From NCBI GenBank assembly GCA_028277945.1, contig JANQFH010000068.1, positions 272,400 through 336,399 on the forward strand: a stretch of 64,000 nucleotides of DNA, in the 5' to 3' direction. Made by a program: the position numbers and the translations under genes. Every line of letters starts with the position of its first letter. Within the stretch, counting starts at the first letter, position 1. Below, piece after piece: positions 32,079 to 61,376 of the stretch. The notes beneath the pieces were generated by a model. It had not been told where the DNA came from, ran no database searches, and saw nothing but the letters and a program-made list of their open reading frames with translations. The DNA is from Oligoflexia bacterium (lineage in GTDB: Bacteria > Bdellovibrionota_G > JANQFH01).

Positions 32079-32090
32079 GATCCTATTACC

Positions 32091-33797: not shown

Positions 33798-33807
33798 ACT
33801 TACACTC

Positions 33808-34761: not shown

Positions 34762-34778
34762 TTTGTACTCTGCGATCG

Positions 34779-35753: not shown

Positions 35754-35754
35754 C

Positions 35755-37452: not shown

Positions 37453-37461
37453 AGCAAACCT

Positions 37462-39168: not shown

Positions 39169-39219
39169 GATTTAGACCTCCCGTTACTCAAAATATCCCT
39201 TTTATTCCAAATACCCCCA

Positions 39220-42656: not shown

Positions 42657-44341
42657 TGGTCTATAGAAAGCACCGAATAAAACTGGTGTCCGGTTAAGCG
42701 AAACCCCTTGAGGTTTTTTGGTATCACGGCAATTTGAGCCCTGTAGTACAGGGGAATGACTGGCAGCTCTTTGGCATACTCTTGCTGGACAGTCTTCATG
42801 AGTTCCTTGCGTTTACCAAAATCGAATTCCGTCTGGATTTGATCGAGCGCTCTGTCGTTTGCCACGCTCTTATACCCTGGATAGTTCTGCCCTGAAAAGC
42901 CATTTTCGGCTGTTGGAATCTCAAGCGAATGTGTAGTGGTTCGCGGTGGATTGTCAGGGGAGGATATCCACGCATACATCGCCATGGCTGAGAACTTGCG
43001 TTTGCGCAAGGTTTCACTGAAAAATACCCGCGGCGGCAGATTTTTTAAGCGCACCTTAATACCGATCTTTTTCCATTCGTTTTGTAAAAAGACCTGTACC
43101 AGCTCGCGGGTCTTGTTTTCAGCAGTGGTTATGAAGACGAATGACAGCTTCTTGCCGTCCTTCGCACGCATACCATCTTGGCCTAGCTTCCAGCCCGCCT
43201 TGTCAAGTAACCTTGCCGCCCTTTTTGGATCGTAAGGGTACTGCATCACGGCGTCGGTGAAATAGGGATCGAGTGGGTTGATGTTATGTAGCGCCACTTG
43301 CTGCTTGCCTTTGAAAAGCGCGTCGACAAGAGCCTGGCGATTGATGGCATGCACCAATGCTTGGCGTACGCGGATGTCCTGGAGGACCGGGTTGCTCAGG
43401 TTCAAATCAATGTGCTCATACATCGTGCCCTGGCGAAACTTCACCATGTAACGTTGCTGTAGTGCTGTATCGCTTGCAAGCCGTTTGTTAAAGGCTAAGG
43501 CTTGGTCAAACTCTAAGCCGGACTCGGAGATCATGTCGATGGTGCCGGAGAGCAGATTAGCTTCCATTGCCTGGGTATTAGGGATTATTTTTAAGACAAT
43601 CTTGTCAATCTTTGGCTTTTTTCCATAGTAGTGTGGGTTGCGCGCTATCATCACATGGCTACCCACCTTGACCTCTTCCACTCTATAAGGCCCACAGTAA
43701 AGCCCTGGATGCGTCGGCTGGGTGGTATAGGCGCTCTGTTTTTCATAAGCGCCAAGGCTGTGCTGGGTCTTTTCCCAAATAGCTCCCTCAATGTGATGCG
43801 GCAATAAATTGACTGTCCCAAGGTGATAGTAGTCGTAACGTGGTTTGTCGTAGGTAATGGTAAACTTCTTGGGATTTTTGCGGTCAACCTCTATGGATTC
43901 GAACTGTTCGTAGAGATCCTTGCTACCAACCGCAACATTAGGGGATTTGCCTACCTTCCAGGCGAGCTGCAAGTCATACCCTGTTACCGGTATGCCATCA
44001 CCCCATTTGGCATTGGCTTTGATCTGCCAATCTACCACCAACCTTTTCTTGCCTTTTTTTGTAATGAGTCTGGCCATGCCATTTTCAAAGGTCGGAACCT
44101 CGGTGCACAGTAGGCATTGCCACTGCCAATCGGCGTTAATCGTAATTAGAGAATGGACGACACTTCTACCAATGTATCGTCCGCCGATGGTTTGCGAAAT
44201 CAAGCTGTTGAGAGTGTCAAACTCATGAACCATGCCAATGGTAAGCTGCTTGTTCGACGGTGCTGCGCTTGTCTGGCTCGCGATACTGATTGTCAGAAGC
44301 ACTATAGATGCGAGTCGCATTGTAAGTTGGAAGCATTTCAT
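42641..44341 (-). CDS. ABC transporter substrate-binding protein, family 5, paralog 7 of 7
   Basis: 566 aa with a signal peptide. 'WQWQCLLCTEVPTF'. 4-nt overlap with the upstream ATPase gene. Confidence 0.85.
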   Translation of the reverse strand: MKCFQLTMRLASIVLLTISIASQTSAAPSNKQLTIGMVHEFDTLNSLISQTIGGRYIGRSVVHSLITINADWQWQCLLCTEVPTFENGMARLITKKGKKRLVVDWQIKANAKWGDGIPVTGYDLQLAWKVGKSPNVAVGSKDLYEQFESIEVDRKNPKKFTITYDKPRYDYYHLGTVNLLPHHIEGAIWEKTQHSLGAYEKQSAYTTQPTHPGLYCGPYRVEEVKVGSHVMIARNPHYYGKKPKIDKIVLKIIPNTQAMEANLLSGTIDMISESGLEFDQALAFNKRLASDTALQQRYMVKFRQGTMYEHIDLNLSNPVLQDIRVRQALVHAINRQALVDALFKGKQQVALHNINPLDPYFTDAVMQYPYDPKRAARLLDKAGWKLGQDGMRAKDGKKLSFVFITTAENKTRELVQVFLQNEWKKIGIKVRLKNLPPRVFFSETLRKRKFSAMAMYAWISSPDNPPRTTTHSLEIPTAENGFSGQNYPGYKSVANDRALDQIQTEFDFGKRKELMKTVQQEYAKELPVIPLYYRAQIAVIPKNLKGFRLTGHQFYSVLSIDQWNLQ

Positions 44342-46508: not shown

Positions 46509-47234
46509 ATGAAGCATGAGCGGTCCGTCTTTGACGCGTTGATTCTGATTGCCCGCCCGGCGGCAGGCAAATCCGAGGTGATTGACTTTCTCAAGCAGAC
46601 GCCGCTTAAGGAACGGCAGCAGCGTTTTCATATTGGCGCGTTTACAGAGTTTGATGACTTTCCCTTTATCTGGCAGATGTTTGAGGAAGATGAACTCCTT
46701 ACCAAACTTGGTCAGCCAAGAGTGTGGACAACACCCGATTGCTACTTCAAGGACCACTACATCTGGAATTTTTTGATTGAAAAACTCAACTTGGCGGTGC
46801 AGCGGCGACAGCAGGAAAACCCTCAATTGATGCAGGGTGAGACTGCGATCATCGAATTCTCTCGCGGTGGTGATCAAGCTTTTGCCGAGGCCTTTCATCA
46901 CTTAGACAGTGAGATCTTGAAGCATGCTGCCGTGCTCTACATCAACGTCTCTTACGCAGAGTCCGTGCGTAAGAACCGACGTCGGGCACGAACCGGAAAA
47001 GAACACAGCATCCTCTACCACTCACTGCCCGATGATAAGATGGAGCACTACTACAAGAGCAACGACTGGCAGCAGCTCAGCAGCCACAGTCCAACACACT
47101 TGGACCTCAAGGGAGTACAGGTGCCCTACGTCGTCTTAGAAAACGAACCCGAAGTCACCGACGATCCGCAGCTGCTTGGTCCAGCCCTGGAGCAGGTATT
47201 GGGCCGTCTCTGGAGCCTGCGTAAGACCTCATAA
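46509..47234 (+). CDS. hypothetical P-loop protein (kinase-like)
   Basis: 241 aa. Walker-A-like 'ILIARPAAGKSEV' near the N-terminus. No further family assignment is possible. Confidence 0.45.
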   Translation: MKHERSVFDALILIARPAAGKSEVIDFLKQTPLKERQQRFHIGAFTEFDDFPFIWQMFEEDELLTKLGQPRVWTTPDCYFKDHYIWNFLIEKLNLAVQRRQQENPQLMQGETAIIEFSRGGDQAFAEAFHHLDSEILKHAAVLYINVSYAESVRKNRRRARTGKEHSILYHSLPDDKMEHYYKSNDWQQLSSHSPTHLDLKGVQVPYVVLENEPEVTDDPQLLGPALEQVLGRLWSLRKTS

Positions 47235-48386
47235 CAGGTCTGCTAAGTTCTTATAGTTGACGACCTGCAAATCTCCGATGGCCTGCTGATGTTTTCCGGC
47301 GTAAACTAGATAACCGGTGGACATGCGATCTCCAACCCAGCTCTTAAATCGGTGCAGACTTCTCATAAAGTCGGGATTAAAGGTCATGGAAGACTTTATC
47401 TCAATCGGTATGAGCGCATTAGCACTTTTGTATATAACATCGATTTCGTTTCTGTTGTGCTCACGAAAAAAATAGAGATTAGGATCAAGCCCTCTATTTA
47501 GTCTAGACTTCATAAGTTCAATCACGACTAGGTTTTCAAATAGGTTACCGCGAAGAGGATCACGACTAAGCTGTTTTAGGTCTTCAATGCCCAAAAGATA
47601 TGTGGCAAGACCTATCTCAGTAAAATATATTTTTGGTGATTTGATGATACGTTTATTGAAGTTTTCAAAATAGGGAAACAGCCGCGTCAGAATGAACGAA
47701 GCTTCAAGCACAGAGATCCACTTTTCTATCGTATGGTAGGAGACACCAACTTCACTGGCAAGACTGCTAGCATTAAATAACTGGCCAATGCGACCAGCAC
47801 AGAGCTTTAAGAAGGACTCAAATGTTGATAGGTCTTTAACCTGTATAATTTGTCGTAAATCTCGTTCGACATAAGTCTGAAAATAGTTACGATAGGCTTT
47901 CACAGGATCCTGGTTGTTGGCATGAATGCGTGGCAGAAATCCATGGAACAGGTATTCGTCTGTTTCGAAAGAGGTACCGAACGACTTTAGTTCAGCAATG
48001 CTTAATGGATAGAGCGTTAATAAGGCCGTTCGGCCAGCAAGCGACTGAACAATCGCAGCTTGAAGTTCAAACTGATGGCTACCGGTCAGGACGAAAAGGC
48101 CATTACGACCCAAACGATCGACCATAACTTGAATGTAGGAGAGTAACTGCGGCAGTCGTTGGATTTCATCGAGGATTGCCCCTTGAGGTAATTGGGCTAA
48201 AAATCCCTGGGGGTCACGGCTAGCAAATTCTCGCTCATCCGGGGCTTCTAAATTAACATAAGTCATGTTTGGAAAAGCCATCTTTGCTAAGGTTGTTTTG
48301 CCGGCTTGCCTCGGACCGGTGATGGTAACCACGGGATAGTGACGCATGAGGCTTTGCACCTCTTGTTGAATAGTGCGGACGATCAT
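47229..48386 (-). CDS. AAA+ superfamily ATPase with DUF4143 C-terminal domain (COG1373-like)
   Basis: 385 aa. Walker A 'ITGPRQAGKTTL' and Walker B-like 'LDEIQ'. The architecture is typical of the 'ATP-binding protein' DUF4143 family. Confidence 0.75.
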   Translation of the reverse strand: MIVRTIQQEVQSLMRHYPVVTITGPRQAGKTTLAKMAFPNMTYVNLEAPDEREFASRDPQGFLAQLPQGAILDEIQRLPQLLSYIQVMVDRLGRNGLFVLTGSHQFELQAAIVQSLAGRTALLTLYPLSIAELKSFGTSFETDEYLFHGFLPRIHANNQDPVKAYRNYFQTYVERDLRQIIQVKDLSTFESFLKLCAGRIGQLFNASSLASEVGVSYHTIEKWISVLEASFILTRLFPYFENFNKRIIKSPKIYFTEIGLATYLLGIEDLKQLSRDPLRGNLFENLVVIELMKSRLNRGLDPNLYFFREHNRNEIDVIYKSANALIPIEIKSSMTFNPDFMRSLHRFKSWVGDRMSTGYLVYAGKHQQAIGDLQVVNYKNLADLL

Positions 48387-48544
48387 TGGATAGAGGTTAA
48401 TATAGACAAATTAGATTTACAAGTTCTATTTTGACTAAAATATATAACCCATCTATATCATTAAAAATTATTTTGGAAGGCCCATAGAGAGGCCCTTAGA
48501 GAGCAAGCGAAGGTGCGATTCATTCGCACCTGAGCGCGGGGTTT

Positions 48545-49706: not shown

Positions 49707-50474
49707 CTAACGAATCTCCACCTCTTTGGCATCCTCGCCGTAGATTCTCTTAAACCACGCGGCATCGATCTCAGTGGCAGCGCCGGTATAGACAATCTCT
49801 CCTGCCTTCAGGGCAATGACTCGGGTTGCATACTGCCTGACGATGCTTAGAAAGTGCAGGTTGCAAACAATCGTTTTGCCATACTCTTGGTTTGCTTTTT
49901 TTAAATAGTCCATCACCGAGTGCGAGGTTGCAGGATCAAGGCTAGCCACAGGCTCGTCTGCCAACAACAGCTCAGGATCCTGCATAAGCGCACGGGCAAT
50001 GGCAACACGCTGTTGCTGGCCGCCACTGAGCTCATCAGCACGCGTCTGCGCCTTGTCCACAAGGCCAACAGCTTGCAGTTTTTCTAAGGCTCGCTCCCTG
50101 GCTTCATCCTCAAACAGAGCGCAGACACTTCTGAGGGTTGAGGTACTGCCGAGACTTCCTGTCAATACATTGGTGAGCACAGATTTGCGTCTGATGAGGT
50201 TGAAGTGTTGAAAGATCATGCCGATCTGCCGGCGTTTCTGACGCATCTCTTTGAAGGGTAGTTGGGTGAGATTGATCTGGTCGAGTAAAACTTCTCCACT
50301 GGTCGGTTCGACCAGACGATTGATACATCGAAGCAGGGTGGACTTTCCAGACCCACTCAGACCGATAATGCCGAGGAACTCACCTTTATTAACTGAGATA
50401 GAGATGTTCTTGATGGCGTGTACGCCGTTGTCATAGATTTTGTTGAGCGAGCGAACTTCTAAGAGCGGCGTCAT
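49707..50474 (-). CDS. phnC: phosphonate ABC transporter ATP-binding protein
   Basis: 255 aa. Walker A '[11 protein letters not shown]', signature '[15 protein letters not shown]', Walker B 'LLLADEP'. Confidence 0.85.
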
Positions 50475-50513
50475 TGGCTAGCAATCCGTGGCAACTCGAA
50501 ACGGCCTTGGTTC

Positions 50514-51554
50514 TTACTTTGCCTTCTTGGCTTTTTTTCTTACAATCGTTTCCACGTCAATATCAGCATCTGCAAGGAGCCTGCGAACTTCATTGTAGTG
50601 GCTGTCTTCAATGGGGATTAATCCAATGACATTATGGCCTTGCATGAGTTGCTCCTTACCCTCTTTGGTTTGCGCATAGGCGTGCAGGGCATCCACAACA
50701 GCTTGTTTCACCTTCTGATTTTTAGCCGGATCTGTGTAGAGGTTGGTGCGAATCGCCCACGGGGCATTGGGTAGGTCCATGGTATAGTCGACAACTTTGA
50801 CCTTTTCTTCAACATCGGGAAATTGGGTTTTGACCATAGCGCGGGCGTCCTGGATGATCTCCTTGACCTTGCCATTTTCAACGACCCGCCTGGGCTGGGT
50901 GTAATAGGTAGCACCGGCATCGACCTGTTTTTGATAGACCATGGCGACAACGTTGTCGTGCCGGTTGGCAAAGACCACCTCACCTAACTGAACACCATGG
51001 TCTCTTAGGTGTATGGAGGGTGCAATATAGCCTGCAGTGGAAGCAGGGTCGGTATAGGCAAACTTCTTACCGCTCAGATCTTTAAGCGAGTGGATACCGC
51101 TATCTGCATGCGCGATAAACTGCCCCTTATAGGAGAGGTGTCCCTCACTACGAATGAGCATCAACACCGCTTCGAGCTCATACCCTTTGATGTCCTTGGC
51201 CAGGATATAACTAAAGGTGGTGATGCCACCAAAGTCTGCTTTGCCACTACCCATTGCCTCGATGACGGCAATGTAGCTTGTTGGCACCGCCTGCTTCACA
51301 TAAAACCCCGTCTCTTTGTTGTAGAGTCTCTTTGAGACAAAGCGCTCGACAAATGTGGCCATATGTTCGGAGGTGGTGGTGATCCCCTGCGAATCAATAT
51401 GGGGTACAAAGTACATGCTGAAAGGGCGCTGCTTCGAGCCCACCTCAGCTTCTTCACAGCCGAGGTTGAGCAGCAGCCACGGTAGTGTCGCCAAGCAGAT
51501 AAAACGTTTTAATAACAAAGAGTTGGTTCTTTTAAGCAGCAGTTGCTTGCTCAT
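50514..51554 (-). CDS. phnD: phosphonate/phosphite ABC transporter substrate-binding protein
   Basis: 346 aa with a signal peptide and PhnD-family blocks ('GKADFGGITTFSYILA', 'YYTQP'). Confidence 0.75.
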   Translation of the reverse strand: MSKQLLLKRTNSLLLKRFICLATLPWLLLNLGCEEAEVGSKQRPFSMYFVPHIDSQGITTTSEHMATFVERFVSKRLYNKETGFYVKQAVPTSYIAVIEAMGSGKADFGGITTFSYILAKDIKGYELEAVLMLIRSEGHLSYKGQFIAHADSGIHSLKDLSGKKFAYTDPASTAGYIAPSIHLRDHGVQLGEVVFANRHDNVVAMVYQKQVDAGATYYTQPRRVVENGKVKEIIQDARAMVKTQFPDVEEKVKVVDYTMDLPNAPWAIRTNLYTDPAKNQKVKQAVVDALHAYAQTKEGKEQLMQGHNVIGLIPIEDSHYNEVRRLLADADIDVETIVRKKAKKAK

Positions 51555-51967
51555 CGCGCTTCTTTGTAGCGGCTATTTACCCAATGCGCAATGAAAAGCT
51601 ACAGCGATTCAGTGGCTCAGCACAGAGCAGACGACGAATGGGCAGTGTGGCTATGGCTTGGGATAGGACCATGCTAAATAACAGGCTAATACCAAGAGTC
51701 TCATGCGTATTGCCACGAAACTGGATTTTATTACCACACACCATAAGGATTTCCACCAAGCCATTCGTAAGAAAGTTCAATCTCAGCAGCTGAATCGGGG
51801 TGCCATTAGAGTCATCCGTTCCAGTACATTTAGCATTGGCATGCCGGCAAACTTTGACTAGGATCCCTGTCAGCTTTCTAAATGACCCTAATGGCCAACG
51901 ATTTTCTTACCTTAGGTGCGGACGGAGGACATTTGACTCATAGCGCCATCCATGCTAGGAGAGACCC

Positions 51968-53254
51968 ATGAAGAGTGAGAAGGCCAACTCTCAGCTACGA
52001 GCTTTACTCTGGTGTAAGGCCCTCCTGATCCTGGCATTGAGTGAGCCAGCGCTGTCTCGAGACGACTCTCTTAGCTTAGCGGACTATTTTGCCGACAATC
52101 CTAATACACCGATTGAAGCCCACCTTATTCACGATGCTGGCTATATTGGCATTGAGGTGACAGTTGGTGGTGTACCAGGACTTTTGTTTGTGGATCATAC
52201 AATAGGTTTGAACGTCTGGTATCCAGATGCCCTGAGAGATAAAAGTCCTAGCGAGACTGATGCGTGGAGAAGAGATGAGCAGACAGGAGAGACCACTATC
52301 CCGCTTTCTCTTGGTAAAATGTCACTAAGCATTCCTTTTGCACGCGTAGATGCGAGGTCGGTTTTAGTGACAAAGTACAAGAGACTTTGTAGAGCAGTGA
52401 ACTGCTTCGGCGTTTTAGGATATGGCTTTCTCAAACAGACGTCGGTAGAGCTCAGTGCGGACCCTGATACCATTCGTTTCCACAATCCAAATTCCGTCTT
52501 AATACCGCAAGAGTTGCAAAACAGTGACCAGCGTGTGTTTCTGCCTTACACACCATTAAAAACTGCTAAAAAAATCGACAGGCCATTAATCTTCATTGCA
52601 ACCACACTTCATACAGAATCAGATGGCATCACCGACGAGGCTAGAGCAACAAAGGAGAAGGGTGGCATTGAAGCTGTTGTAAAGGACCTTGGATACCGGT
52701 GCCTAGTTGGTATGTTTCGTATTCATCTCCTCAAGCAGTTTCACGTCGATCGTATCCGTGAAGTCATTGGTCGCCATATTGATCTCGGCAGCCTTGAAGG
52801 TGAGGATATGTTCGAAAAAGGAAAGGCTTTTGGCGCTAGGATCAAGGCAACAGCAACAGAAGGAGAACAGGTGATCAGCAACGAAACAGTTCAAAGGATT
52901 TACAACGACATGGTCGCAACAGATTTTGCTGATGTTTACAACCTAGTAGAATCGACCGAGCAGGACAAGGTGCGTGGTCGTATGCAACTCCAGTTAGCTG
53001 GAGATGGCGCTAGCTTAGATCAGACTCTGGTGTATGTAACCGGTCTCGACATCAACACCTCTAAGACCATCTCGTTTGCTGACAATCTTGAAGTGTCGAT
53101 CCCGGCCCCTTGGACAATGCGACGCATCCGTGAACACAGTCCCGACGTTGCTGAGCTGTTGGGTGAAATCAGCGCCCTCGCTCTCGCCAAACAGGGCCAC
53201 ATCGTCACCATTCACTTTCAAAGAAAAATCGTTGAGATTAAAAAAACAGGCTAA
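51968..53254 (+). CDS. secreted hypothetical protein (possible degenerate retropepsin-like N-terminal domain)
   Basis: 428 aa. Signal peptide 'ALLWCKALLILALSEPALS'. 'IGIEVTVGGVPGLLFVDHTIGLNV' resembles the retropepsin 'V.INGQ...LLDTGAS' strand-turn, but with D-H-T instead of D-T/S-G. Confidence 0.45.
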   Translation: MKSEKANSQLRALLWCKALLILALSEPALSRDDSLSLADYFADNPNTPIEAHLIHDAGYIGIEVTVGGVPGLLFVDHTIGLNVWYPDALRDKSPSETDAWRRDEQTGETTIPLSLGKMSLSIPFARVDARSVLVTKYKRLCRAVNCFGVLGYGFLKQTSVELSADPDTIRFHNPNSVLIPQELQNSDQRVFLPYTPLKTAKKIDRPLIFIATTLHTESDGITDEARATKEKGGIEAVVKDLGYRCLVGMFRIHLLKQFHVDRIREVIGRHIDLGSLEGEDMFEKGKAFGARIKATATEGEQVISNETVQRIYNDMVATDFADVYNLVESTEQDKVRGRMQLQLAGDGASLDQTLVYVTGLDINTSKTISFADNLEVSIPAPWTMRRIREHSPDVAELLGEISALALAKQGHIVTIHFQRKIVEIKKTG

Positions 53255-53335
53255 TCAAAATCTACAGTCTGACAAAACCCCTAATTCGTTAACAATCTCA
53301 ATCAGATTAGTTCATCATATTAATCCAGGTTTTTC

Positions 53336-53372
53336 TTGACAGATCATGCTTGATCATGATAGCCTAAAAGGC
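53336..53372 (+). promoter_or_regulatory. sigma70-like promoter (TTGACA -35) with ATCATG direct repeats / ATCATGAT palindrome overlapping the -10 region; probable antitoxin autoregulation operator
   Basis: TTGACA at 53336-53341. 'GATCATGCTTGATCATGAT' follows immediately. The RBS GGAG at 53379-82 precedes ATG 53388/53391. Confidence 0.4.
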
Positions 53373-53387
53373 CAAGATGGAGACTTA

Positions 53388-53600
53388 ATGATGGCAAAAG
53401 ATACTGAAATTGTTAATTTTTCTACCACTTTAACCAAACCGACGAAAGATCTCTTGGAACGATTCTGTAGCAAGCGTGGTCTTCGTATGAACCATCTAGT
53501 CGAGCGCGCTATACTCGAACTCCTCGAAGATGAAATGGACAAGGAGATCATCGAAGACAGAGAACTAGAAGAAACCGTTGAATGGAAGAAGCTTGCCTGA
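53388..53600 (+). CDS. type II antitoxin (RHH/Phd-like) partnered with the downstream RelE/ParE toxin
   Basis: About 70 aa, acidic C-terminus ('LLEDEMDKEIIEDRELEETVEWKKLA'). 23-nt overlap with the toxin gene. The ORF-track start 53346 would lie upstream of the predicted promoter, so 53388 is preferred. Confidence 0.55.
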   Translation: MMAKDTEIVNFSTTLTKPTKDLLERFCSKRGLRMNHLVERAILELLEDEMDKEIIEDRELEETVEWKKLA

Positions 53601-53871
53601 CCAATATTGGAAAGTTGTCTTTCAGAAATCTGCTTTCAAAGAATACCAAGCTCTTCCAAAAAAGATGAGGATTCGGGTTGACCAAGTCCTTGAAGTTCTA
53701 AGCATCAATCCTTTGTCAGAAATCCTTCGATTCAAAAAGATTCGAGGAAAAGAAAACCATTATCGAGTACGCATTGGTGACTATCGGCTTATCTACTCTC
53801 CTCAAGCTGAAGTCCTTATCGTCCGTGTGATCAAGATTGCACATCGAAAAGAAGTTTATCGCTATTTTTAA
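53578..53871 (+). CDS. type II toxin, RelE/ParE superfamily
   Basis: 97 aa. 'YWKVVF...A.KEYQALPKK...RI...L..L..NP....' and C-terminal 'YRVRIGDYRLIYSPQAEVLIVRVIKIAHRKEVY' are the RelE/ParE hallmarks. Confidence 0.75.
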   Translation: MNGRSLPDQYWKVVFQKSAFKEYQALPKKMRIRVDQVLEVLSINPLSEILRFKKIRGKENHYRVRIGDYRLIYSPQAEVLIVRVIKIAHRKEVYRYF

Positions 53872-53983
53872 TTTGGCGTCCCCAAGGAGCGGGAGCAGCC
53901 ATCTTCAGAGCAATATCAAGAAATCCTCGATATTCTAAAGTGAGAAAGCGTTTGCTTGCGCAGAGTCGAGGAGCTGTTTGAGA

Positions 53984-54898
53984 TCAACTGATTTCTGCTA
54001 ATCGTTCTTCGGTGCGTTTTCGAATCCACTCATTTCCTGTTTGGCTAATCAATCGCTCTAGGTCCTCAGCCGTACCAAATTGAATAACAACCAAGCTGGC
54101 ATGCCATTCAGTAACATGAGCTGTATCTAGGCTAAGAACAATAAAGGAAACATCTACGGCGAGACGTTTTTGATTTTCTGTAACTTCGTAGAACTGATTC
54201 GAGGCCGCCCCGGATAGAAACTGGTTGAAAAAGGCGAACCTCTCAAAATAGTCAGCGTTGTCGTAATCATGCAAATCTCTCTCAGCTGGATCGCCAAGCG
54301 CAAGCTTAACCATACCAACCAAATCGTCATTAACCTGCTGCCGAACACGCGCAGCCCATTCTAGAACTACAGGACTATCGGGCTCCCTCGTATTCAAGTG
54401 CTCAATAAATCTATTGATAGCGCGTTCACGATAACGCTTCGGCATATCCTTATCAAGGATCAGCTCCCAAACAAGACCCAAACCCGAAAGGGTAGCTGCC
54501 TCATTTCTGGTCAACGTAGCTCTATCAAAACGCGAAAAGATCGCCCCGAGCCCAGGTTCAACAATTTTTAACGCCCGGTCGACAACTACTTCATCGATGA
54601 TTAAAGCTTCGGGATCATCAATTACCATGGCTACGGCATAGTTCTGCAAAATATGAAACTTGGCGACCTCAAGCAAACCATACAGAGCCTGGCTGTCCTC
54701 AAGTGCTAAGAGCTGAATGACCGCTTGCTCTCGATCGTCAAATTCTTTACCCCGCTTAGCAATTTCTACAAGCTCGGCAATTTCATCCGTTGAAGCCGTC
54801 ACTGTGTTGGAAGCGAAGAAAAAAGAAAAAAGACTCAATAAAATGACTAGGCTATAGGAATAAAGTGAAAACATGCAGGAAACCTCCCAAGTTGACAA
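53984..54898 (-). CDS. secreted helical hypothetical protein
   Basis: 304 aa. Signal peptide 'MFSLYSYSLVILLSLFSFFFASNTVTAS' (alternative start 54874). No domain recognised. Confidence 0.45.
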   Translation of the reverse strand: MSTWEVSCMFSLYSYSLVILLSLFSFFFASNTVTASTDEIAELVEIAKRGKEFDDREQAVIQLLALEDSQALYGLLEVAKFHILQNYAVAMVIDDPEALIIDEVVVDRALKIVEPGLGAIFSRFDRATLTRNEAATLSGLGLVWELILDKDMPKRYRERAINRFIEHLNTREPDSPVVLEWAARVRQQVNDDLVGMVKLALGDPAERDLHDYDNADYFERFAFFNQFLSGAASNQFYEVTENQKRLAVDVSFIVLSLDTAHVTEWHASLVVIQFGTAEDLERLISQTGNEWIRKRTEERLAEIS

Positions 54899-55264
54899 AT
54901 CACATACCGTCTACCCCCCATTAGCAGAGGACATACCAGGAGTCAATCGGGGCGCGGAATAGCACTGCAATGTTTGCCTCATAAAAGAGAATGATATCAT
55001 ACCAACCGAGAAGCTCGGTTAAATCCAGTTACAGACCACCATTTACGATCGTTTCGATGTCCGTTGATTTCGCTTCATGTAGTACTTAACTGGTACTCAA
55101 AATGGCGCAACATGATATTGCAGCGAGCTCGGTTGGTGACGGAAAGATTTCCTTCAGCTTATTGCTTATGATTGATTTGGTTGAAGATTCGATCAAAAGT
55201 GGAATATACTGTATTTAATAATGTCATATAGTTATAAAAATTTTGTTGTATACAGGTCACATTT

Positions 55265-55609
55265 ATGGTACTCATAGTAGAAGAGCTTGAAGTTGAATTC
55301 TATGAAGATACTTCAGGCAAATGCCCGTTTCTTGAATGGCAGGAATCGCTTAGAGATAGAAGGGTTGAGGCCAAAATCGATAAGCGGATTCAACGTATAC
55401 GAACAGGTAATCTTGGTGACTGTAAGCGCCTAAAGGAAGCAGACGGTATTTGGGAATTAAGAATGGATTTCGGGCCTGGCTATCGCCTTTATTATGGGAG
55501 GGACGGAAACAAATTGATCGTCTTGCTTTGTGGCGGAATTAAGAGAACCCAAGATGCCGATATTGAAAGAGCTGAGAAGTATTGGCGTGATTATCAGGAG
55601 AGAAAGTAA
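55265..55609 (+). CDS. type II toxin, 'addiction module killer' (HigB/RelE-like, TIGR02683-type)
   Basis: 114 aa. 'F..WL..L.D...A.I..RI.RI..GNLGD.K.L..GIWELR.DFGPGYRLYY...G..IVLLCGG.K..Q..DI..A' matches the family. The stop overlaps the antitoxin start (TAATG). Confidence 0.75.
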   Translation: MVLIVEELEVEFYEDTSGKCPFLEWQESLRDRRVEAKIDKRIQRIRTGNLGDCKRLKEADGIWELRMDFGPGYRLYYGRDGNKLIVLLCGGIKRTQDADIERAEKYWRDYQERK

Positions 55610-55920
55610 TGGCTCCTCAAACTAGAAAATTTAGAGACGTTTTGCATAGAAAGTTACAAGATCCAGAGTACGCTCTAGAGTTCTTGAATACCGCGCTTGA
55701 GGAATATCAAGAAGACCGTGATTTGCCGACTTTCCTGCTCTGCCTACGTGATTTGGCTGCAGCTCGTGGATTCCAGGAACTTGCGGAAAAAATGGATAAG
55801 GATAGGGGCAGTATATACCGGTCTTTCAGTAAAAAGGGCAACCCAGCATTCCACACCGTTTTTGATCTCTTAAACGCGCTAGGTTTTTACATACCCAAAG
55901 CTGAACTCAAGGCTTCTTAA
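55609..55920 (+). CDS. type II antitoxin, 'addiction module antidote' (HigA-like HTH, TIGR02684-type)
   Basis: 103 aa. 'EYALEFLNTALEEYQEDRDLPTFLLCLRDLAAARG...L....G..R..LY' with HTH. Confidence 0.75.
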   Translation: MAPQTRKFRDVLHRKLQDPEYALEFLNTALEEYQEDRDLPTFLLCLRDLAAARGFQELAEKMDKDRGSIYRSFSKKGNPAFHTVFDLLNALGFYIPKAELKAS

Positions 55921-55944
55921 CTGAAACATAACCGGTCGCTCCCC

Positions 55945-56712
55945 TTACTGATTAGCCGGTTGCATGAAGAGCAAGGCAAGAATCGTTCTTTGAGGCTCTT
56001 CAATATCTGGAATTGCGTTATAGATGATTCGGGCCGACCAGCATTTTTCGGCTTTCGATAGCTCCTGCTTATCTTTGCCCGCCTCGAAGTTTTTCCTTAA
56101 TCTTTGCCCTTTTTCTTCACCAATTACCCTAAAAAGTAATTTAATCGCGTCTTGGGTATCCTCAGCCGTAATCTGTCTAGCGGGTGCCTCATCCAATTCC
56201 AATTTCATCGCCATTACGGAAATATCCCACCACACTTTGAGCTGATCCCTCGGTAAACTGGTGACTAAATTTAGAAACGTGGCATGATCCATACCAGAAA
56301 ACATACCGCTACAAACGTCAAGATCCGAGCTTTCGGCCCAACTTTGGTAAAAGGCAAGGCGTTGCAACAGATGCTGACTATCGAGTCGTTTAAGACCAGC
56401 TGTTACTAGTTTTGCACCAATTAATTTGGCCTCTTCTTCTGGCAGCTCCTCCATCATTTTTTCCAGCCGCGGATGGTCTTTAATGGGCACTATGCCCTCT
56501 TTTATCAAACGGTGTAACGAGAAAGGAGGGAAAAGCCATACTTGAGACAGAGTTGACCCCAGTCCAAACCCAAGCACACCGAAAATACTCATAAGATAGA
56601 GAAAGAGTTTCGATTCCTTTTTGATTTTGAAAAATCGTGAAACCGGTATTATAAGAAGGACTCCAAAAAAACACCCCACCATGCCCACCAAGGTTGAAGT
56701 AAAATCAATCAT
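55945..56712 (-). CDS. hypothetical membrane protein (2 N-terminal TM helices + cytoplasmic helical domain)
   Basis: 255 aa. 'LVGMVGCFFGVLLIIPV' and 'LYLMSIFGVLGFGLGSTL' TM segments. No family recognised. Confidence 0.45.
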   Translation of the reverse strand: MIDFTSTLVGMVGCFFGVLLIIPVSRFFKIKKESKLFLYLMSIFGVLGFGLGSTLSQVWLFPPFSLHRLIKEGIVPIKDHPRLEKMMEELPEEEAKLIGAKLVTAGLKRLDSQHLLQRLAFYQSWAESSDLDVCSGMFSGMDHATFLNLVTSLPRDQLKVWWDISVMAMKLELDEAPARQITAEDTQDAIKLLFRVIGEEKGQRLRKNFEAGKDKQELSKAEKCWSARIIYNAIPDIEEPQRTILALLFMQPANQ

Positions 56713-56757
56713 ACGTATTGCCCTCTTCTAAAGGTTGCGCTCCTCATAAGGACAGCC

Positions 56758-57084
56758 TTACTCATTGGCAGCTTTGTTAAATTCGAGTTGGAGTTTGCCA
56801 AATTGGATACTAAGAGCGTCCATGACCTCAAGGACGGTGGAAAACAAGGGTTCACCATGCTCGGAGAAAGACTTGTAGAGGCTGGTGCGTGAGCGGCCGG
56901 TTTTGGTTGCCAGCTTGGACATGCCGTGGGCTTTGGCGACATCTTGAAGTGCCAATAGCAGAGGAGCGAACTCTTTGATTTGGTTGTAGTCCTCAAAGGC
57001 GGCGTTGAGATAGGCAACCGCCTCTTTGGGGTCTTTTAACTGTTCGTCCAGGAAATCTTCATATTTTCTTGTCTGTCTAGGCAC
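56758..57084 (-). CDS. orphan 'addiction module antidote' antitoxin paralog (HigA-like, TIGR02684-type) lacking a cognate toxin gene
   Basis: 108 aa. 'EAVAYLNAAFEDYNQIKEFAPLLLALQDVAKAHGMSKLATKTGRSRTSLYKSFSEHGEPLFSTVLEVMDAL' is paralogous to 55609..55920. Only 180 bp of non-coding DNA separate it from the tRNA. Confidence 0.65.
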   Translation of the reverse strand: MPRQTRKYEDFLDEQLKDPKEAVAYLNAAFEDYNQIKEFAPLLLALQDVAKAHGMSKLATKTGRSRTSLYKSFSEHGEPLFSTVLEVMDALSIQFGKLQLEFNKAANE

Positions 57085-57266
57085 CTTTCATGCTCCTGTA
57101 ACTACGCCAATACGCTTTTGTCTCCTATAGAAGACGTTATGTCAATGAGCTAATTCAGAAAGGTTGAATTTTGGAGACCTAGAATAAAAGGCAGTACGGA
57201 AATTGGACTTCTGAAATCGGATTCAAAACGATTTAGAAAACAGAAAACTAAACACGGTGTGGTAAT

Positions 57267-57362
57267 TGGCGGAAGTGCATGGGAATCGAACCCACCACCG
57301 AACGGTTAGGTTCGGTCGCTGGATTTGAAGTCCAGGGTCTCCACCAGGAGGCAGGCACTTCC
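57267..57362 (-). tRNA. selC: tRNA-Sec (selenocysteine tRNA, anticodon UCA)
   Basis: Minus strand: GGAAGTGCCTGCCTCCTGGTGGAGACCCTGGACTTCAAATCCAGCGACCGAACCTAACCGTTCGGTGGTGGGTTCGATTCCCATGCACTTCCGCCA. 8-bp acceptor stem GGAAGUGC/GCACUUCC, discriminator G, encoded CCA, anticodon loop CUUCAAA, long extra arm, T-arm GGTTCGATTCC. It is blockwise similar to E. coli selC. Confidence 0.9.
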
Positions 57363-57460
57363 AGAGGCTTGCCTCTATCAAAGCGTTGGCTGCATGTAAA
57401 CGGCAGTCATCGGCCTCGTTGAAGTTGTCTTTTTACCTAGGCGGGTTAGGGTAGAGGATT

Positions 57461-58213
57461 GTGGAATCGCTACAGGAAATCATCGGCGCGTTTACAACCT
57501 GGGAGCTGCTGCTCTTCTACTTTGCCGCCTTTCTTACCGCTATCCTTAATACCGTAGCTGGTTTTGCCGGGGGTATGGCGCTACTGGCGATCTTTTCCTT
57601 TTTTATGCATCCACAGATCTACATTCCCATGGTGGCGCTGGTGATGTTTGTGACCAATGTCGTGCGTTTGTGGATTTTGTGGCGAGAAATCCAGTGGCCA
57701 TTAGTACGCTCTTTTCTCATCGGCCTCTTACCCGGGGTTCTGCTTGGCGGCTATGGTTTTGCCGTACTACCCGCAAGGGTGTTGGAAGTGCTCTTGGGTG
57801 GTTTTCTGTTGCTCTATGTGGTGATCAGCGTGGTGCAGCGCCAATTGCTCTTTCGTGTGCGCTTGGGCCAGTTTTTGCCGGTTGGTTTTTTTGCCGGTGT
57901 CGTCTCGACAGTCATTGGCGCTGCTGGACCCTTTGTGGCACCCTTTGTCCTTGGTTTTGGCTTGAGCGGGCCGGTTTTTGTCGCCACAACCATTACGCTG
58001 CAAACCCTTACCCATTTTATCAAGCTATTTACCTATGCCTATGTAGGCGTGCTACCAGCGGGAGCTGCACTCTTTGCGCTGCTGTTGTCAGTTGCCCTCA
58101 TACCAGCCATCTTTGTGGGTAGGTGGGCGGGCATGCGGGTCAAACCACGAGCGTTTCGCACCTTAATCCTTGTGCTGCTGGCAATTGTCGGTTTGCGATT
58201 CCTCTTCTTTTGA
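57461..58213 (+). CDS. TauE/SafE (DUF81) family membrane transporter (sulfite/anion exporter-like)
   Basis: 250 aa, about 8 TM segments. N-terminal 'LLFYFAAFLTAILNTVAGFAGGMALLAIF' (the family's glycine-rich helix) repeated in the C-terminal half. Confidence 0.7.
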   Translation: MESLQEIIGAFTTWELLLFYFAAFLTAILNTVAGFAGGMALLAIFSFFMHPQIYIPMVALVMFVTNVVRLWILWREIQWPLVRSFLIGLLPGVLLGGYGFAVLPARVLEVLLGGFLLLYVVISVVQRQLLFRVRLGQFLPVGFFAGVVSTVIGAAGPFVAPFVLGFGLSGPVFVATTITLQTLTHFIKLFTYAYVGVLPAGAALFALLLSVALIPAIFVGRWAGMRVKPRAFRTLILVLLAIVGLRFLFF

Positions 58214-58250
58214 AAAATGGCCATACATTACATGACCTTAATCGAGAAAG

Positions 58251-58460
58251 TTATCCACAGCTGTGGATAAATTAGCGATCGTAAGAGTGGAAGTTGTGCA
58301 TCTGCCTAGAGGGGATGAAGAGTTCTATTAAACTGCTGAAACTAGAACTCGAATTCGAATTGCCTAAAAAGTAGTCAATTTGTTAAAGCCCTTGTCCTCA
58401 CAGCTTTTTTTGTCTTTTTGGGCGGTTTTTCCAAAAGTTATCCACAGAAAGTGTGGACAA
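58251..58460. promoter_or_regulatory. cluster of four DnaA boxes in two inverted pairs within a 210-bp AT-rich intergenic region
   Basis: TTATCCACAGCTGTGGATAA (58251-70) is two perfect consensus boxes in a palindrome. TTATCCACAGAAAGTGTGGACAA (58438-60) is one perfect box plus one TTGTCCACA box. A/T-rich stretches lie in between. Confidence 0.55.
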
Positions 58461-58519
58461 AGAGAGGAGTTTCAATTTAAAATTCAATGGGTTAGACTCT
58501 AAGCGAGACTGCAGCTCTT

Positions 58520-58822
58520 ATGCCCAAGGTAACCTTTCTCATGGATGGTGACGAGTCTTCTGGCGACTTTGAGTCTGGAACCAGACTATTGCATGCTGCG
58601 CAGAAACTCGAAGTGCCGATCATCTCCACCTGTGGTGGCCAGCCCAGTTGTACGGATTGCCGTGTTAAGGTGTTGCAGGGGATGGAGAACCTCTCCAAGC
58701 CAGAGTATGCCGAAGTCAGTCTGATCGGCTCCGTAAGCCACATTACCCAGGAGCGCCTCTCTTGTCAGGCTAAAGTGCGAGGTGATGTGTGCGTGCAGCC
58801 TCTACGTCTGCGGCGCCGCTGA
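58520..58822 (+). CDS. [2Fe-2S] ferredoxin (plant/adrenodoxin-type)
   Basis: 100 aa. Cys ligand pattern C-x5-C-x2-C...C ('STCGGQPSCTDCRVKV ... LSCQAKV'). Its 3' end convergently overlaps the radical SAM gene by about 50 nt. Confidence 0.65.
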   Translation: MPKVTFLMDGDESSGDFESGTRLLHAAQKLEVPIISTCGGQPSCTDCRVKVLQGMENLSKPEYAEVSLIGSVSHITQERLSCQAKVRGDVCVQPLRLRRR

Positions 58823-61376
58823 GTTTTGCTAAGGGTGCTACCGCGGCCATCGGTGGCTGCTTCTCAAGGGCAAAGATTGCCGACCAAATCTCTGGACACC
58901 CCAGCTCTTGGGTGAGGAATTGTCCAACACGGGGTGGAGCGCCTTGGCTGCTATTCCACTTTAGGGTGAACTCTACATCCAGTGGATTTTGATTGTAGAG
59001 GATAAAGTTTTCTAGAAGGCTAGCCGAGCAATCTCCCTGATCTTTGTGGCTGGCGAGCTGCGTTGCCCTCTTGCCTACCGAGTTGACCACCACGGCTTGT
59101 TCAACTGAGAGCTCATCGCCAATTTGTCTAAGGCGGAAACGACTCTGGCATGGTTTGCTAATGTTTTCTCCCACGGCTTTTTCATGGATTTCAATGGCAC
59201 TGAGTTCTTCAGGTAGAAAATCGTGCAGCTGAACTAAGAGCTTGTCTGCAATGAACTCTGGCAACTCTCCGAGCACATGGAATTGTACCTGCTCATAGCC
59301 ACTGGCAACACCAACGGGTAGTGCCGGAGAAAAACTGAGTTTGGCATGAGGTGAGTAGCCCTGGGAATACTTTAAGTACAGACCGTTTTGTTTCAGCGCC
59401 TGTTTGAGACCGCGTTCGATAAGATTGGCCATATCACGCTGTCCGAGCCAGCGCAGCTTACCCTGTTTGGTATAGGTGAGAACCAACGTTGTAAACGTGT
59501 TTGGGTCGATTGCATTGCCCGCTTGGTTTTCAAGTGGTTTGGTGTCAATGAGTTCGTCAAGGCGATCGACCTTGGGTGCCAATTTGATGTCCTTGTAGTT
59601 GCCGGGGATGCCGCAGTGGTGACAATCACCCCACTTGCAGTCACTGACACCAACGCCGGCATAGGCACGCTGACGTTCCTTAGCGAGATAGTTTTTTGCC
59701 AAGCCAATGTGGATAAAGTCCCACGGTAGCAATTTGTCCATAGGTTGCTCGCGAATAAAGGGCATGGGATCGACAGCCGATTCCTCAAAGGCGCGCATCC
59801 AACCGGCGAAATTGAAATGCTCGGAGAAGCTATCGAAGCAGTGGCCGTTCTTATAATAGTTGTAGATCGCTTTGGCCACGGAACGGTCACCCCGGCTAAG
59901 CACGCATTCGATAAAAGCCTCTTTGGGCTCATGCCATTTGAGCTTTGTCTGTCTGTGGATGAGGTTTTCTTGCAGGTAGCGCAAGTGATCTTCCAGCTCG
60001 GCCAACTCTCGAAAGGGTTCCCACTGAAAGGGGGTAAAGGGTTTGGGCACAAAGGTGCCAATGCTGACGTGCACTCGCTTGGGGCGACCACTCTTTGGCG
60101 CTATCCCGAGGATGTTTTCCGTTAGCGTGATGATGCTCTTAATGTCGGTACGGGTCTCTGTAGGTAGGTTGATCATGATATAGAGTTTGATGAGGTTCCA
60201 ACCTTTGCTAAAGGCAATACGAGCAGCCTCCAACATTTCAGCATCGGAGATGTTTTTGTTGATCACACGGCGTAGCCTCTCACTACCTGCTTCAGGTGCG
60301 AAGGTGAAACCACTGCGACGCACTTCACCCGCTTGATCGGCGAGTTTGACCGAGAGCGCGTCAGCACGCAACGACGGCAGTGAAATGGAAATCTTGTCCT
60401 GTTTGAACTGCTGGTTGATCGCCCGGGTGAGTGGTTCCACTTGCGAGTAGTCTGCTGTCGACAGGGAGAGCAGACCAAGCTCATCTACACCCGTGGCATC
60501 GATTCCCTTTTTAGCTAGTTTAAGAATGTCTTGGACTGCCATCTCACGTGCGGGACGATAGAAGTAGCCAGCTTGACAGTATCGACAGCCTTGGGTGCAA
60601 CCACGCATCACCTCGACGCTAACGCGGTCGTGTACGGTTTTGATCACAGGTACTAATGGGGTTTCCGGGTAGTTGGCGGGGTTGAGATCACTTACCCAGC
60701 GCCGTTTGATACGCTCGGCAAATGGAATCGATTCATTACGCTGAATTCTAGCTGCATGGTTGTGGATTTGTGGCACATAAAAACCCCGTAGCTGCGCCAG
60801 TGCCTCAAGTCGACGCTGTCGGCTAGGGATGTCACGAAAAATCTGCAACATCTCCTCTATCGCCTCTTCAGCATCGCCTATGAGAATAAAATCAAAAAAA
60901 TCAGCAACCGGTTCTGGATTGCACATGGTGGGTCCACCCGCAGCGATAATCGGGTCGTAATTACGGCGCTGGTCTGCAAAGAGAGGAATCTGCGCCAAAT
61001 CCAACAGGTAGGGTATGTTGCTGTAGTTGAGCTCGGTTTGCAGAGAGAAGCCAACGAGATCAAGCTTCTTTAAAGGAGTACGGCTCTCTAGCGTAAGCAG
61101 TGGTAGCTCGCGTTGTTTGAGCAGGCTTGCCATATCGTGCCACGGAGCAAAAACACGTTCGGCGTAACTATCATCGTGGCGATTGATGAGTTCATAGAGG
61201 ATACGGATGCCATTGTGCGACATGCCGATCTCATAGATGTCTGGAAAGACTATGCCGACATGTACTTTGATTTGATCGAGCGTCTTAGTGACTGCATGGG
61301 GCTCACCGCCGACGTAGCGTCCAGGTTTTTCTACATAAGGTAGTAGAGCTTCCCATTGGCGGGCAAGACGGTGCAT
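58770..61376 (-). CDS. large B12-binding radical SAM protein (TIGR03960-type) fused to a DUF2344-like C-terminal domain
   Basis: 868 aa. N-terminal B12-binding-like region 'VHVGIVFPDIYEIGMSHNGIRILY'. Radical SAM cluster 'MRGCTQGCRYCQAGYFYR'. Long C-terminal extension. Confidence 0.7.
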   Translation of the reverse strand: MHRLARQWEALLPYVEKPGRYVGGEPHAVTKTLDQIKVHVGIVFPDIYEIGMSHNGIRILYELINRHDDSYAERVFAPWHDMASLLKQRELPLLTLESRTPLKKLDLVGFSLQTELNYSNIPYLLDLAQIPLFADQRRNYDPIIAAGGPTMCNPEPVADFFDFILIGDAEEAIEEMLQIFRDIPSRQRRLEALAQLRGFYVPQIHNHAARIQRNESIPFAERIKRRWVSDLNPANYPETPLVPVIKTVHDRVSVEVMRGCTQGCRYCQAGYFYRPAREMAVQDILKLAKKGIDATGVDELGLLSLSTADYSQVEPLTRAINQQFKQDKISISLPSLRADALSVKLADQAGEVRRSGFTFAPEAGSERLRRVINKNISDAEMLEAARIAFSKGWNLIKLYIMINLPTETRTDIKSIITLTENILGIAPKSGRPKRVHVSIGTFVPKPFTPFQWEPFRELAELEDHLRYLQENLIHRQTKLKWHEPKEAFIECVLSRGDRSVAKAIYNYYKNGHCFDSFSEHFNFAGWMRAFEESAVDPMPFIREQPMDKLLPWDFIHIGLAKNYLAKERQRAYAGVGVSDCKWGDCHHCGIPGNYKDIKLAPKVDRLDELIDTKPLENQAGNAIDPNTFTTLVLTYTKQGKLRWLGQRDMANLIERGLKQALKQNGLYLKYSQGYSPHAKLSFSPALPVGVASGYEQVQFHVLGELPEFIADKLLVQLHDFLPEELSAIEIHEKAVGENISKPCQSRFRLRQIGDELSVEQAVVVNSVGKRATQLASHKDQGDCSASLLENFILYNQNPLDVEFTLKWNSSQGAPPRVGQFLTQELGCPEIWSAIFALEKQPPMAAVAPLAKLSGAADVEAARTHHLAL

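Follow-up and report, generated by a model that had tools for sequence, protein, structure and literature searches.

The closest described counterparts of the locus reported here are genomic islands at selC, the selenocysteine tRNA (tRNA-Sec) gene of enterobacteria, such as GIselC17584/1, LEE and islands of the SHI-2 type. Insertions at selC of E. coli carry CP4/P4-type integrases, have a 24-bp direct repeat of selC at the end and range from 3.4 to 57 kb (PMC6174562). Another comparable category is that of the additive flexible islands of Alteromonas, in which variable cassettes of hypothetical and toxin-antitoxin genes are located at tRNA or tmRNA genes, and of which only some keep the tRNA repeat (PMC4898812). 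A segment of 5,712 nt (positions 51555-57266, hereafter the islet) between a phosphonate-type ATP-binding cassette (ABC) transporter operon and the tRNA-Sec gene of an Oligoflexia bacterium (GenBank assembly GCA_028277945.1, contig JANQFH010000068.1, positions 272,400 to 336,399) was subjected to computational analysis; the whole analysed stretch of 64,000 nt is called the window, and all positions are given within it. The islet is probably a small mosaic of horizontally acquired DNA, a decayed or piecemeal islet of the flexible genome, which sits at a tRNA-Sec integration hotspot and is now without mobility function. We give this reading a probability of roughly 0.6.

Like the enterobacterial selC islands, the islet consists of DNA of foreign composition immediately downstream of the tRNA-Sec 3' end. 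Mosaic cargo with many hypothetical proteins is common to both, as are toxin-antitoxin genes, which the enterobacterial islands carry sometimes, and at both sites the 3' end of the tRNA holds an attachment (att) core of about 24-26 nt. The islet differs from those islands in having neither integrase nor repeat, in measuring only 5.7 kb and in belonging to an unrelated host lineage. Cassette content and tRNA adjacency are also shared with the additive islands of Alteromonas, a category that rests on strain comparison, whereas the present locus is represented by one genome.

The reference for base composition was the remainder of the 64-kb window and not the complete genome. The GC content of the islet is 0.446 against 0.510 in the rest of the window, where segments of the same length have a mean of 0.510 (standard deviation (SD) 0.012) and a minimum of 0.486. 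Maximum-likelihood segmentation returned 53211-57250 as the top low-GC segment (GC 0.432), with a log-likelihood ratio (LLR) of 45; 20 shuffles of 100-bp blocks gave LLRs of at most 18. In tetranucleotide z-scores, the islet correlates with the rest of the window at 0.38 (0.62 ± 0.06 elsewhere, minimum 0.50) and the dinucleotide delta* is 73.5 (33.7 ± 8.0, maximum 52); both signatures are normalised for base composition and both are off by 4-5 SD. The GC content at third codon positions (GC3) of the islet genes, with the exception of an orphan antitoxin gene discussed below, lies between 0.35 and 0.47, compared to 0.572 ± 0.042 for 50 other open reading frames (ORFs) of the window (z -2.4 to -4.3), and the codon-usage log-likelihood z ranges from -1.0 to -3.6. 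No other segment of the 64 kb deviates as strongly as the islet, which adjoins the 3' end of the window's sole tRNA gene. A previous interpretation made from the letters alone (the sequence-only reading) had described the segment next to tRNA-Sec as more AT-rich than its flanks and had proposed sliding GC and codon-usage analysis as a check, and the values above bear it out. The long A/T runs that it listed are indeed AT-rich (GC 0.33, 0.40 and 0.37), but they are intergenic spacers and not homopolymer runs.

The tRNA gene was identified using ARAGORN as tRNA-SeC with anticodon TCA and an encoded CCA (57267-57362, minus strand). It is intact (Rfam RF01852, 75.3 bits, gathering score 47, covering model positions 1-91 of 91), and its 3' end (57267) points towards lower coordinates, i.e. 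at the islet. The end of the gene that forms the att core is as follows:

57267-57292, minus strand: terminal 26 nt of the tRNA, att core, GGTTCGATTCCCATGCACTTCCGCCA, found exactly in 18 IMG/VR viral contigs

The 18 viral contigs (loci L165-L182) represent about 11 distinct sequence families. According to ARAGORN and Rfam none of their core sites is a complete tRNA; they are partial-tRNA sites of two kinds, holding either the core only (26-30 nt) or about 60 nt that correspond to the 3' half of tRNA-Sec from the anticodon loop. Each of the seven loci tested encodes, upstream of the core and on its strand, a tyrosine integrase (PF00589, E 8e-9 to 2e-31), at a distance of 20-105 nt in six and of 1.3 kb in one. 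Since the exact core recurs in viral contigs with integrases upstream of it, this tRNA-Sec has at its 3' end a genuine and heavily used att site. The sequence-only reading had appealed to selC as an insertion hotspot in enterobacteria. The present host is not enterobacterial, but the same tRNA end acts as the att core in the 18 viral contigs, and through these matches the analogy becomes evidence that applies to this sequence.

In the temperate phages and integrative elements represented by these contigs, the identical 26-nt core is found as attP or attR. They differ from the islet in carrying a tyrosine integrase upstream of the core and, in some cases, phage functions such as C4 antisense RNA. 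The latter (RF01695), known as the immunity RNA from phages of the P1/P7 type, was detected in one family of the tRNA-Sec-targeting contigs (L170, 6105-6177; L176, 3298-3370; L181, 7781-7853). The islet as a remnant of a viral element of this kind was considered and ruled out, the core being all that they have in common.

The junctions were examined in an independent Logan assembly of the same sequencing run (SRR20820740). There the islet is joined at 100% identity to about 10 kb of native transporter genes (phosphonate and oligopeptide), and since the left junction lies inside this identical contig it is real and not an assembly artefact. Two Logan contigs (L001 and L002), one with the islet and one with the genes beyond the tRNA, end inside tRNA-Sec and overlap exactly at 57268-57292, that is, by 25 nt or the core minus its last base, which suggests that the sample contains the core a second time, perhaps in a phage attP, a variant strain or a different species. 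A chimera of metagenome assembly or binning, joined at a conserved tRNA sequence, would fit the break of the Logan assembly at the tRNA 3' end, and the 26-nt core is common to many sequences in nature. Yet the islet is contiguous with genes of native composition over about 10 kb in a single identical contig, composition and codon usage are alike on both sides of the tRNA, and a false join at the tRNA would not create an internal block of low GC. We therefore consider a chimera extremely improbable.

Eight ORFs lie between the phosphonate-binding protein gene and tRNA-Sec, the same set as listed in the sequence-only reading. Its description of the gene content, i.e. ORFs of 428, 304 and 255 aa, a RelE/ParE toxin with its antitoxin, a HigB-like and HigA-like pair and an orphan HigA-like paralogue, was confirmed. 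The features of the islet and its left neighbour are:

50514-51554, minus strand: phosphonate-binding protein gene (PF12974, E 2.5e-45)
51555-51967: left boundary spacer of 413 bp (GC 0.479), divergent, between the phosphonate-binding protein gene (minus) and the 428-aa ORF (plus)
51968-53254, plus strand: 428-aa ORFan with a signal-peptide-like N-terminus
53346-53600, plus strand: RelB/ribbon-helix-helix (RHH)-type antitoxin candidate with weak family matches; likely ATG at about 53391, giving 70 aa
53578-53871, plus strand: RelE-family toxin (Pfam ParE_toxin PF05016, 35 bits, cut-off 23; GC3 0.347)
53984-54898, minus strand: 304-aa ORF with an N-terminal hydrophobic signal or anchor
54899-55264: AT-rich divergent promoter region (GC 0.399) between the 304-aa gene and the HigB-like toxin gene
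55265-55609, plus strand: HI1419/Gp49-type toxin of the RelE/ParE superfamily, HigB-like (TIGR02683, 113.5 bits, cut-off 62.85)
55609-55920, plus strand: HI1420-type helix-turn-helix (HTH) antitoxin, HigA-like 1 (Pfam dnstrm_HI1420, 46.1 bits, cut-off 27)
55945-56712, minus strand: 255-aa protein with two N-terminal hydrophobic helices (GC3 0.441)
56758-57084, minus strand: orphan HI1420-type antitoxin, HigA-like 2 (Pfam 70.2 bits; TIGR02684 69.4 bits, cut-off 53.7)
57120-57135: 16-nt palindrome, GTCTCCTATAGAAGAC, 36-51 nt upstream of the GTG start of HigA-like 2

From their family matches and arrangement, two type II toxin-antitoxin modules are apparently intact and are accompanied by one orphan antitoxin. 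RelE-like toxins are ribosome-dependent mRNA endonucleases that are restrained by a small antitoxin encoded upstream. The RelE-family toxin of the islet matches the PHROG RelE-like toxin (5e-18), stays under the TIGR02385 cut-off (24.2 against 27.9) and can start only at TTG codons (53578 or 53593). Its nearest structure is RelE3 of M. jannaschii (PDB 3bpq_B, E 1.9e-10), on which residues 12-97 align to 2-87 over the full length. The antitoxin candidate is located immediately upstream and overlaps the start of the toxin; the Logan gene call for it has 70 aa, and its matches (DUF6290, 21.6 bits against a cut-off of 27; RelB_antitoxin, E 0.0015; Arc-like repressor PHROGs, E about 1e-3) are all below curated cut-offs. 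Compared to RelBE, the full-length toxin domain, the antitoxin-first order and the overlapping frames are alike, while the antitoxin below the curated NCBIfam cut-off and the exclusive TTG starts of the toxin are different.

The second module corresponds to the HI1419/HI1420 HigBA-like family (TIGR02683/TIGR02684; PF05973/PF21716), in which the toxin is neutralised and repressed by a downstream HTH antitoxin. The toxin comes first and is of full length, and its stop codon overlaps HigA-like 1 by 1 nt. It is further supported by Pfam Gp49 (27.7 bits, cut-off 23.9) and a PHROG toxin (2.8e-28), and it matched 933 plasmid records with up to 48% identity; by their plasmid and PHROG matches, the toxin families of the islet are common on plasmids and phages. 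The spacer before the toxin gene holds a promoter-like site (55181-55210), and an inverted repeat (55209-55221 / 55243-55255) is located just upstream of the toxin start. The module departs from the family in that HigA-like 1 scores under the NCBIfam cut-off (TIGR02684, 47.5 bits against 53.7), and HigA-like 2 in having no toxin partner. HigA-like 2 exceeds both the Pfam and the NCBIfam cut-offs and is 41% identical to HigA-like 1; no toxin gene or toxin remnant was found in the 182 nt upstream of it. The palindrome at 57120-57135 is a plausible candidate operator of this orphan antitoxin, through which it probably autoregulates and may also drive the 255-aa gene 45 nt downstream.

The three hypothetical proteins are exported or membrane proteins by their predicted N-termini and are unrelated to one another. 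In the homologue searches, their genes proved to be ORFans or close to it. The 428-aa protein matched only itself in a word-indexed search of 5.8 G proteins and in a full phmmer search of 1.84 G cluster representatives, and it had no match in Pfam, NCBIfam, PHROG, PADLOC or PDB and no tblastn match in plasmids or phages. Judged from these searches, it is a true ORFan. Its single-sequence AlphaFold2 model was unusable (pLDDT 35.6). A retropepsin-like assignment of its N-terminal half (VDHT..., ...LGYGFL...) was dropped, as Pfam remained empty even at E 10 for the whole protein and for sub-domains.

The 304-aa ORF more likely encodes 296 aa from a conserved ATG at 54874. It has a sole homologue, P0011, encoded on a 1.9-kb ENA contig (ERZ5332883), with 68% identity (67% over 298 aligned codons), and it had no Pfam, NCBIfam, PADLOC or PDB match. 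The DNA identity of the two genes (78% over 931 nt, of which 72 nt precede the ATG) exceeds the amino-acid identity. The ratio of nonsynonymous to synonymous substitution rates (dN/dS) is 0.42 at a dS of 0.50, which indicates that the gene is real but fast-evolving, and from these comparisons the protein appears fast-evolving and lineage-restricted. On its contig (positions 1-1893), P0011 is accompanied by a 112-aa membrane ORF, a truncated PIN-like ORF (by sequence reading) and a Phd/YefM-type antitoxin. By these annotations the surroundings of P0011 differ from those of the islet, yet they are again toxin-antitoxin-rich and mosaic.

No close homologue of the 255-aa protein was found. Its remote homologue in Xanthomonas sacchari (WP_043095602.1; 27% identity over 237 aa, pairwise E 4e-20, tblastn E 3e-11) has a lipoprotein-like N-terminus (by sequence reading) and two conserved cysteines and is encoded among housekeeping genes. 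On account of this match, the 255-aa protein is regarded as a divergent member of an uncharacterised envelope-protein family. The Xanthomonas gene (locus L164, positions 4071-5477) lies next to, and in divergent orientation to, one for a protein of 148 aa that matches Pim (pesticin immunity) weakly (E 0.0012, under the cut-off), and its replicon, NZ_CP010410.1, is labelled a plasmid yet holds housekeeping genes. The single-sequence AlphaFold2 model of the 255-aa protein was unusable as well (pLDDT 47.3). For the three hypothetical proteins, phmmer against PDB gave nothing below E 0.2 and tblastn against plasmids and phages gave the Xanthomonas match of the 255-aa protein alone; scans of viral contigs revealed no homologue of the 304-aa and 255-aa proteins.

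The sequence-only reading had named these proteins as possible defence cargo, which found no support in PADLOC. Toxin-antitoxin modules are often located in defence islands, and the islet could be a defence or novel-effector islet, in which exported or membrane effectors are paired with toxin-antitoxin-type regulators in anti-phage defence or abortive infection. The orphan antitoxin and the 255-aa gene would suit such a role, as they point the same way at a distance of 45 nt and no terminator is predicted in between, and so would the sole homologue of the 304-aa protein, which is also next to toxin-antitoxin genes. However, PADLOC detected no defence system, its sole match being a weak and partial NsnC (E 7e-4) to the HigB-like toxin, with none in the three hypothetical proteins; the GC3 of the would-be partners differs (0.57 for the antitoxin and 0.44 for the 255-aa gene); the Xanthomonas homologue of the 255-aa protein lacks an HTH partner and is located among housekeeping genes; and the three hypothetical proteins have no relation to each other. 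We regard an effector islet as quite improbable. That the orphan HI1420-type antitoxin and the 255-aa protein form an undescribed module of regulator and membrane effector or, more broadly, that each exported protein is cargo tied to the neighbouring toxin-antitoxin genes, is very doubtful.

Several results weigh against horizontal acquisition at tRNA-Sec. An integrase hidden Markov model (HMM) was built from seven integrases located beside the att core and, as positive control, recovered integrase fragments in four loci outside the build set. Run on all six frames of the 64 kb, it reached a best E-value of 1.2 and revealed no integrase or remnant, which agrees with the sequence-only reading, where no integrase was visible. 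The repeat of the tRNA 3' end that the same reading had suggested looking for, as an attR remnant, was not found. With up to three mismatches, the last 24 and 20 nt of the tRNA matched the tRNA itself only in the whole window, and the last 15 nt gave matches at chance rate. A mismatch scan with the 26-nt core reached at best 16/26 in the relevant region, which equals background, so there is no degenerate second copy; the general repeat search also gave no copy of the tRNA 3' end. Between the islet and the viral loci no protein or DNA similarity was detected beyond the core. Pfam and NCBIfam scans of all islet ORFs gave no recombinase, Pfam, NCBIfam and PHROG scans gave no excisionase, replication or mobilisation genes, and the islet DNA showed no similarity to plasmids or phages.

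These searches also bear on whether the islet could be a satellite-like island that is still mobilisable, moved in trans by a helper element whose integrase acts on the same core. Many integrases target exactly this core, and the way in which the Logan contigs break and overlap on it fits a second copy in the community. Excision would need a second att site, however, and none is present within 57 kb downstream of the tRNA; nor are there genes for excisionase, replication or mobilisation. Continued mobility of this kind is highly improbable. An integron cassette array or a cluster of attC sites lacking integron-integrases (CALIN) was also rejected, on account of mixed gene orientation and of spacers with no recurring attC-like inverted repeats in a coarse test made without an attC model.

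Further points on the same side come from the distribution of base composition. The orphan antitoxin gene (56758-57084), nearest to the tRNA, is native-like (GC3 0.569, z -0.1), and since a native-like gene adjoins the tRNA, the start of the foreign DNA does not coincide with the att site, unlike in a fresh insertion. Another low-GC gene is situated away from any tRNA (47229-48386, minus strand; GC 0.437, GC3 z -3.2), which shows that low-GC inserts do not need a tRNA; the segmentation also returned 47341-48480 with an LLR of 20. AT-richness is, moreover, typical of fast-evolving, weakly expressed ORFans of whatever origin. At the left end, the composition of the 428-aa gene is only intermediate (GC3 0.469, z -2.4; codon z -1.0). 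The five strongly deviant genes are contiguous, with native genes at either end. The islet is thus layered and not uniform, which points to several events or ages rather than a single insertion.

The layering and the missing hallmarks would also fit a native, lineage-specific patch of weakly expressed, fast-evolving genes with long-resident toxin-antitoxin loci, AT-rich through mutational bias and adjacent to tRNA-Sec by coincidence. Such a patch would contain no integrase and no att repeat, and native-like codon usage is seen in the orphan antitoxin and partly in the 428-aa gene. The dN/dS of 0.42 of the 304-aa gene indicates relaxed constraint, its homologue at a dS of 0.5 could reflect vertical inheritance in a relative, and the position of the remote 255-aa homologue among Xanthomonas housekeeping genes fits as well. 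We consider this explanation, the main rival, unlikely, though it carries appreciable weight: the oligonucleotide signatures deviate by 4-5 SD even after normalisation for base composition, the five deviant genes are contiguous with native genes on both sides, the toxin-antitoxin families are typical of plasmids and phages, and the location coincides with a demonstrated att site.

The horizontally acquired island proposed in the sequence-only reading is partly supported: foreign composition by five measures, mobile-type cargo and the att site speak in favour, whereas an integrase and a repeat are lacking and a gene of native composition sits beside the tRNA. Under horizontal acquisition at tRNA-Sec, entry would have been through the att site, by at least one integrative element or by cassettes that such elements brought in, which we infer as the most economical route. 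The integrase and the distal att repeat would have been lost later by deletion, and the remaining cargo may have been kept because toxin-antitoxin modules disfavour further loss.

The left spacer contains a 14-bp inverted repeat (51802-51815 / 51882-51895) that encloses 66 nt and lies upstream of the phosphonate-binding protein gene. On the minus strand this region (51802-51895) folds with a z of -2.76 (0/200 shuffles as good), and on the plus strand with a z of -1.37; it has no Rfam match. Six-frame translation of the spacer yielded short fragments only, and the two largest had no Pfam, NCBIfam or PADLOC family. One of the short ORFs (51703-51861) was considered as a decayed HigB toxin and dropped, with no support from Pfam, NCBIfam or PADLOC. 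Besides tRNA-Sec, an Rfam scan of 50000-59000 with E up to 1 returned one noise match only, and a scan for tandem repeats gave none of note.

The transporter operon on the far side of the islet lies on the minus strand and comprises genes for the phosphonate-binding protein, an ATPase and a permease. The low-GC gene at 47229-48386 encodes an AAA_14 + DUF4143 ATPase and sits between the oligopeptide and the phosphonate transporter operons. Further upstream, seven paralogous ORFs of about 565-594 aa with 58-65% mutual identity lie within 30357-44341 on the minus strand, in an array with two further ORFs in between (33808-35753). SBP_bac_5 oligopeptide-type binding proteins account for at least two of the seven, and the array is unusually large for neighbouring one set of ABC ATPases. 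On the other side of tRNA-Sec are a TauE-family exporter, a small ferredoxin-like ORF and an 868-aa radical-SAM protein. The ferredoxin-like ORF (58520-58822, plus strand) and the radical-SAM gene (58770-61376, minus strand) converge with a 3' overlap of 53 nt.

Relatives of the host were searched for with proteins of the locus. At 90% identity, each of the ten proteins checked was either a singleton or absent. Homologues of the flanking radical-SAM protein in 185,579 species representatives and in Joint Genome Institute (JGI) metagenome contigs were 36-46% identical (the best 43-46%), without synteny, with no tRNA-Sec nearby and no common neighbourhood except for one QueG. Going by these protein identities, the host is a member of an uncultured lineage with no close sequenced relatives and is not an enterobacterium.

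A decayed or additive genomic islet at a tRNA hotspot is an already known kind of locus, of which this is a further instance, and its meaning beyond annotation is limited: about 5 kb of probable foreign DNA and two or three toxin-antitoxin loci, in a bacterial lineage that has been sampled poorly. The locus illustrates that tRNA adjacency and atypical composition do not suffice for a bona fide integrative island, and its 428-aa protein offers a clean case of a true ORFan. Should the doubtful pairing of exported proteins with toxin-antitoxin-type regulators hold, the islet would bring together new units for abortive infection or envelope variation at a tRNA-Sec att hotspot. The core is matched in about ten or more distinct viral sequence families with integrases, which indicates that tRNA-Sec is an integration hotspot well outside the enterobacteria.

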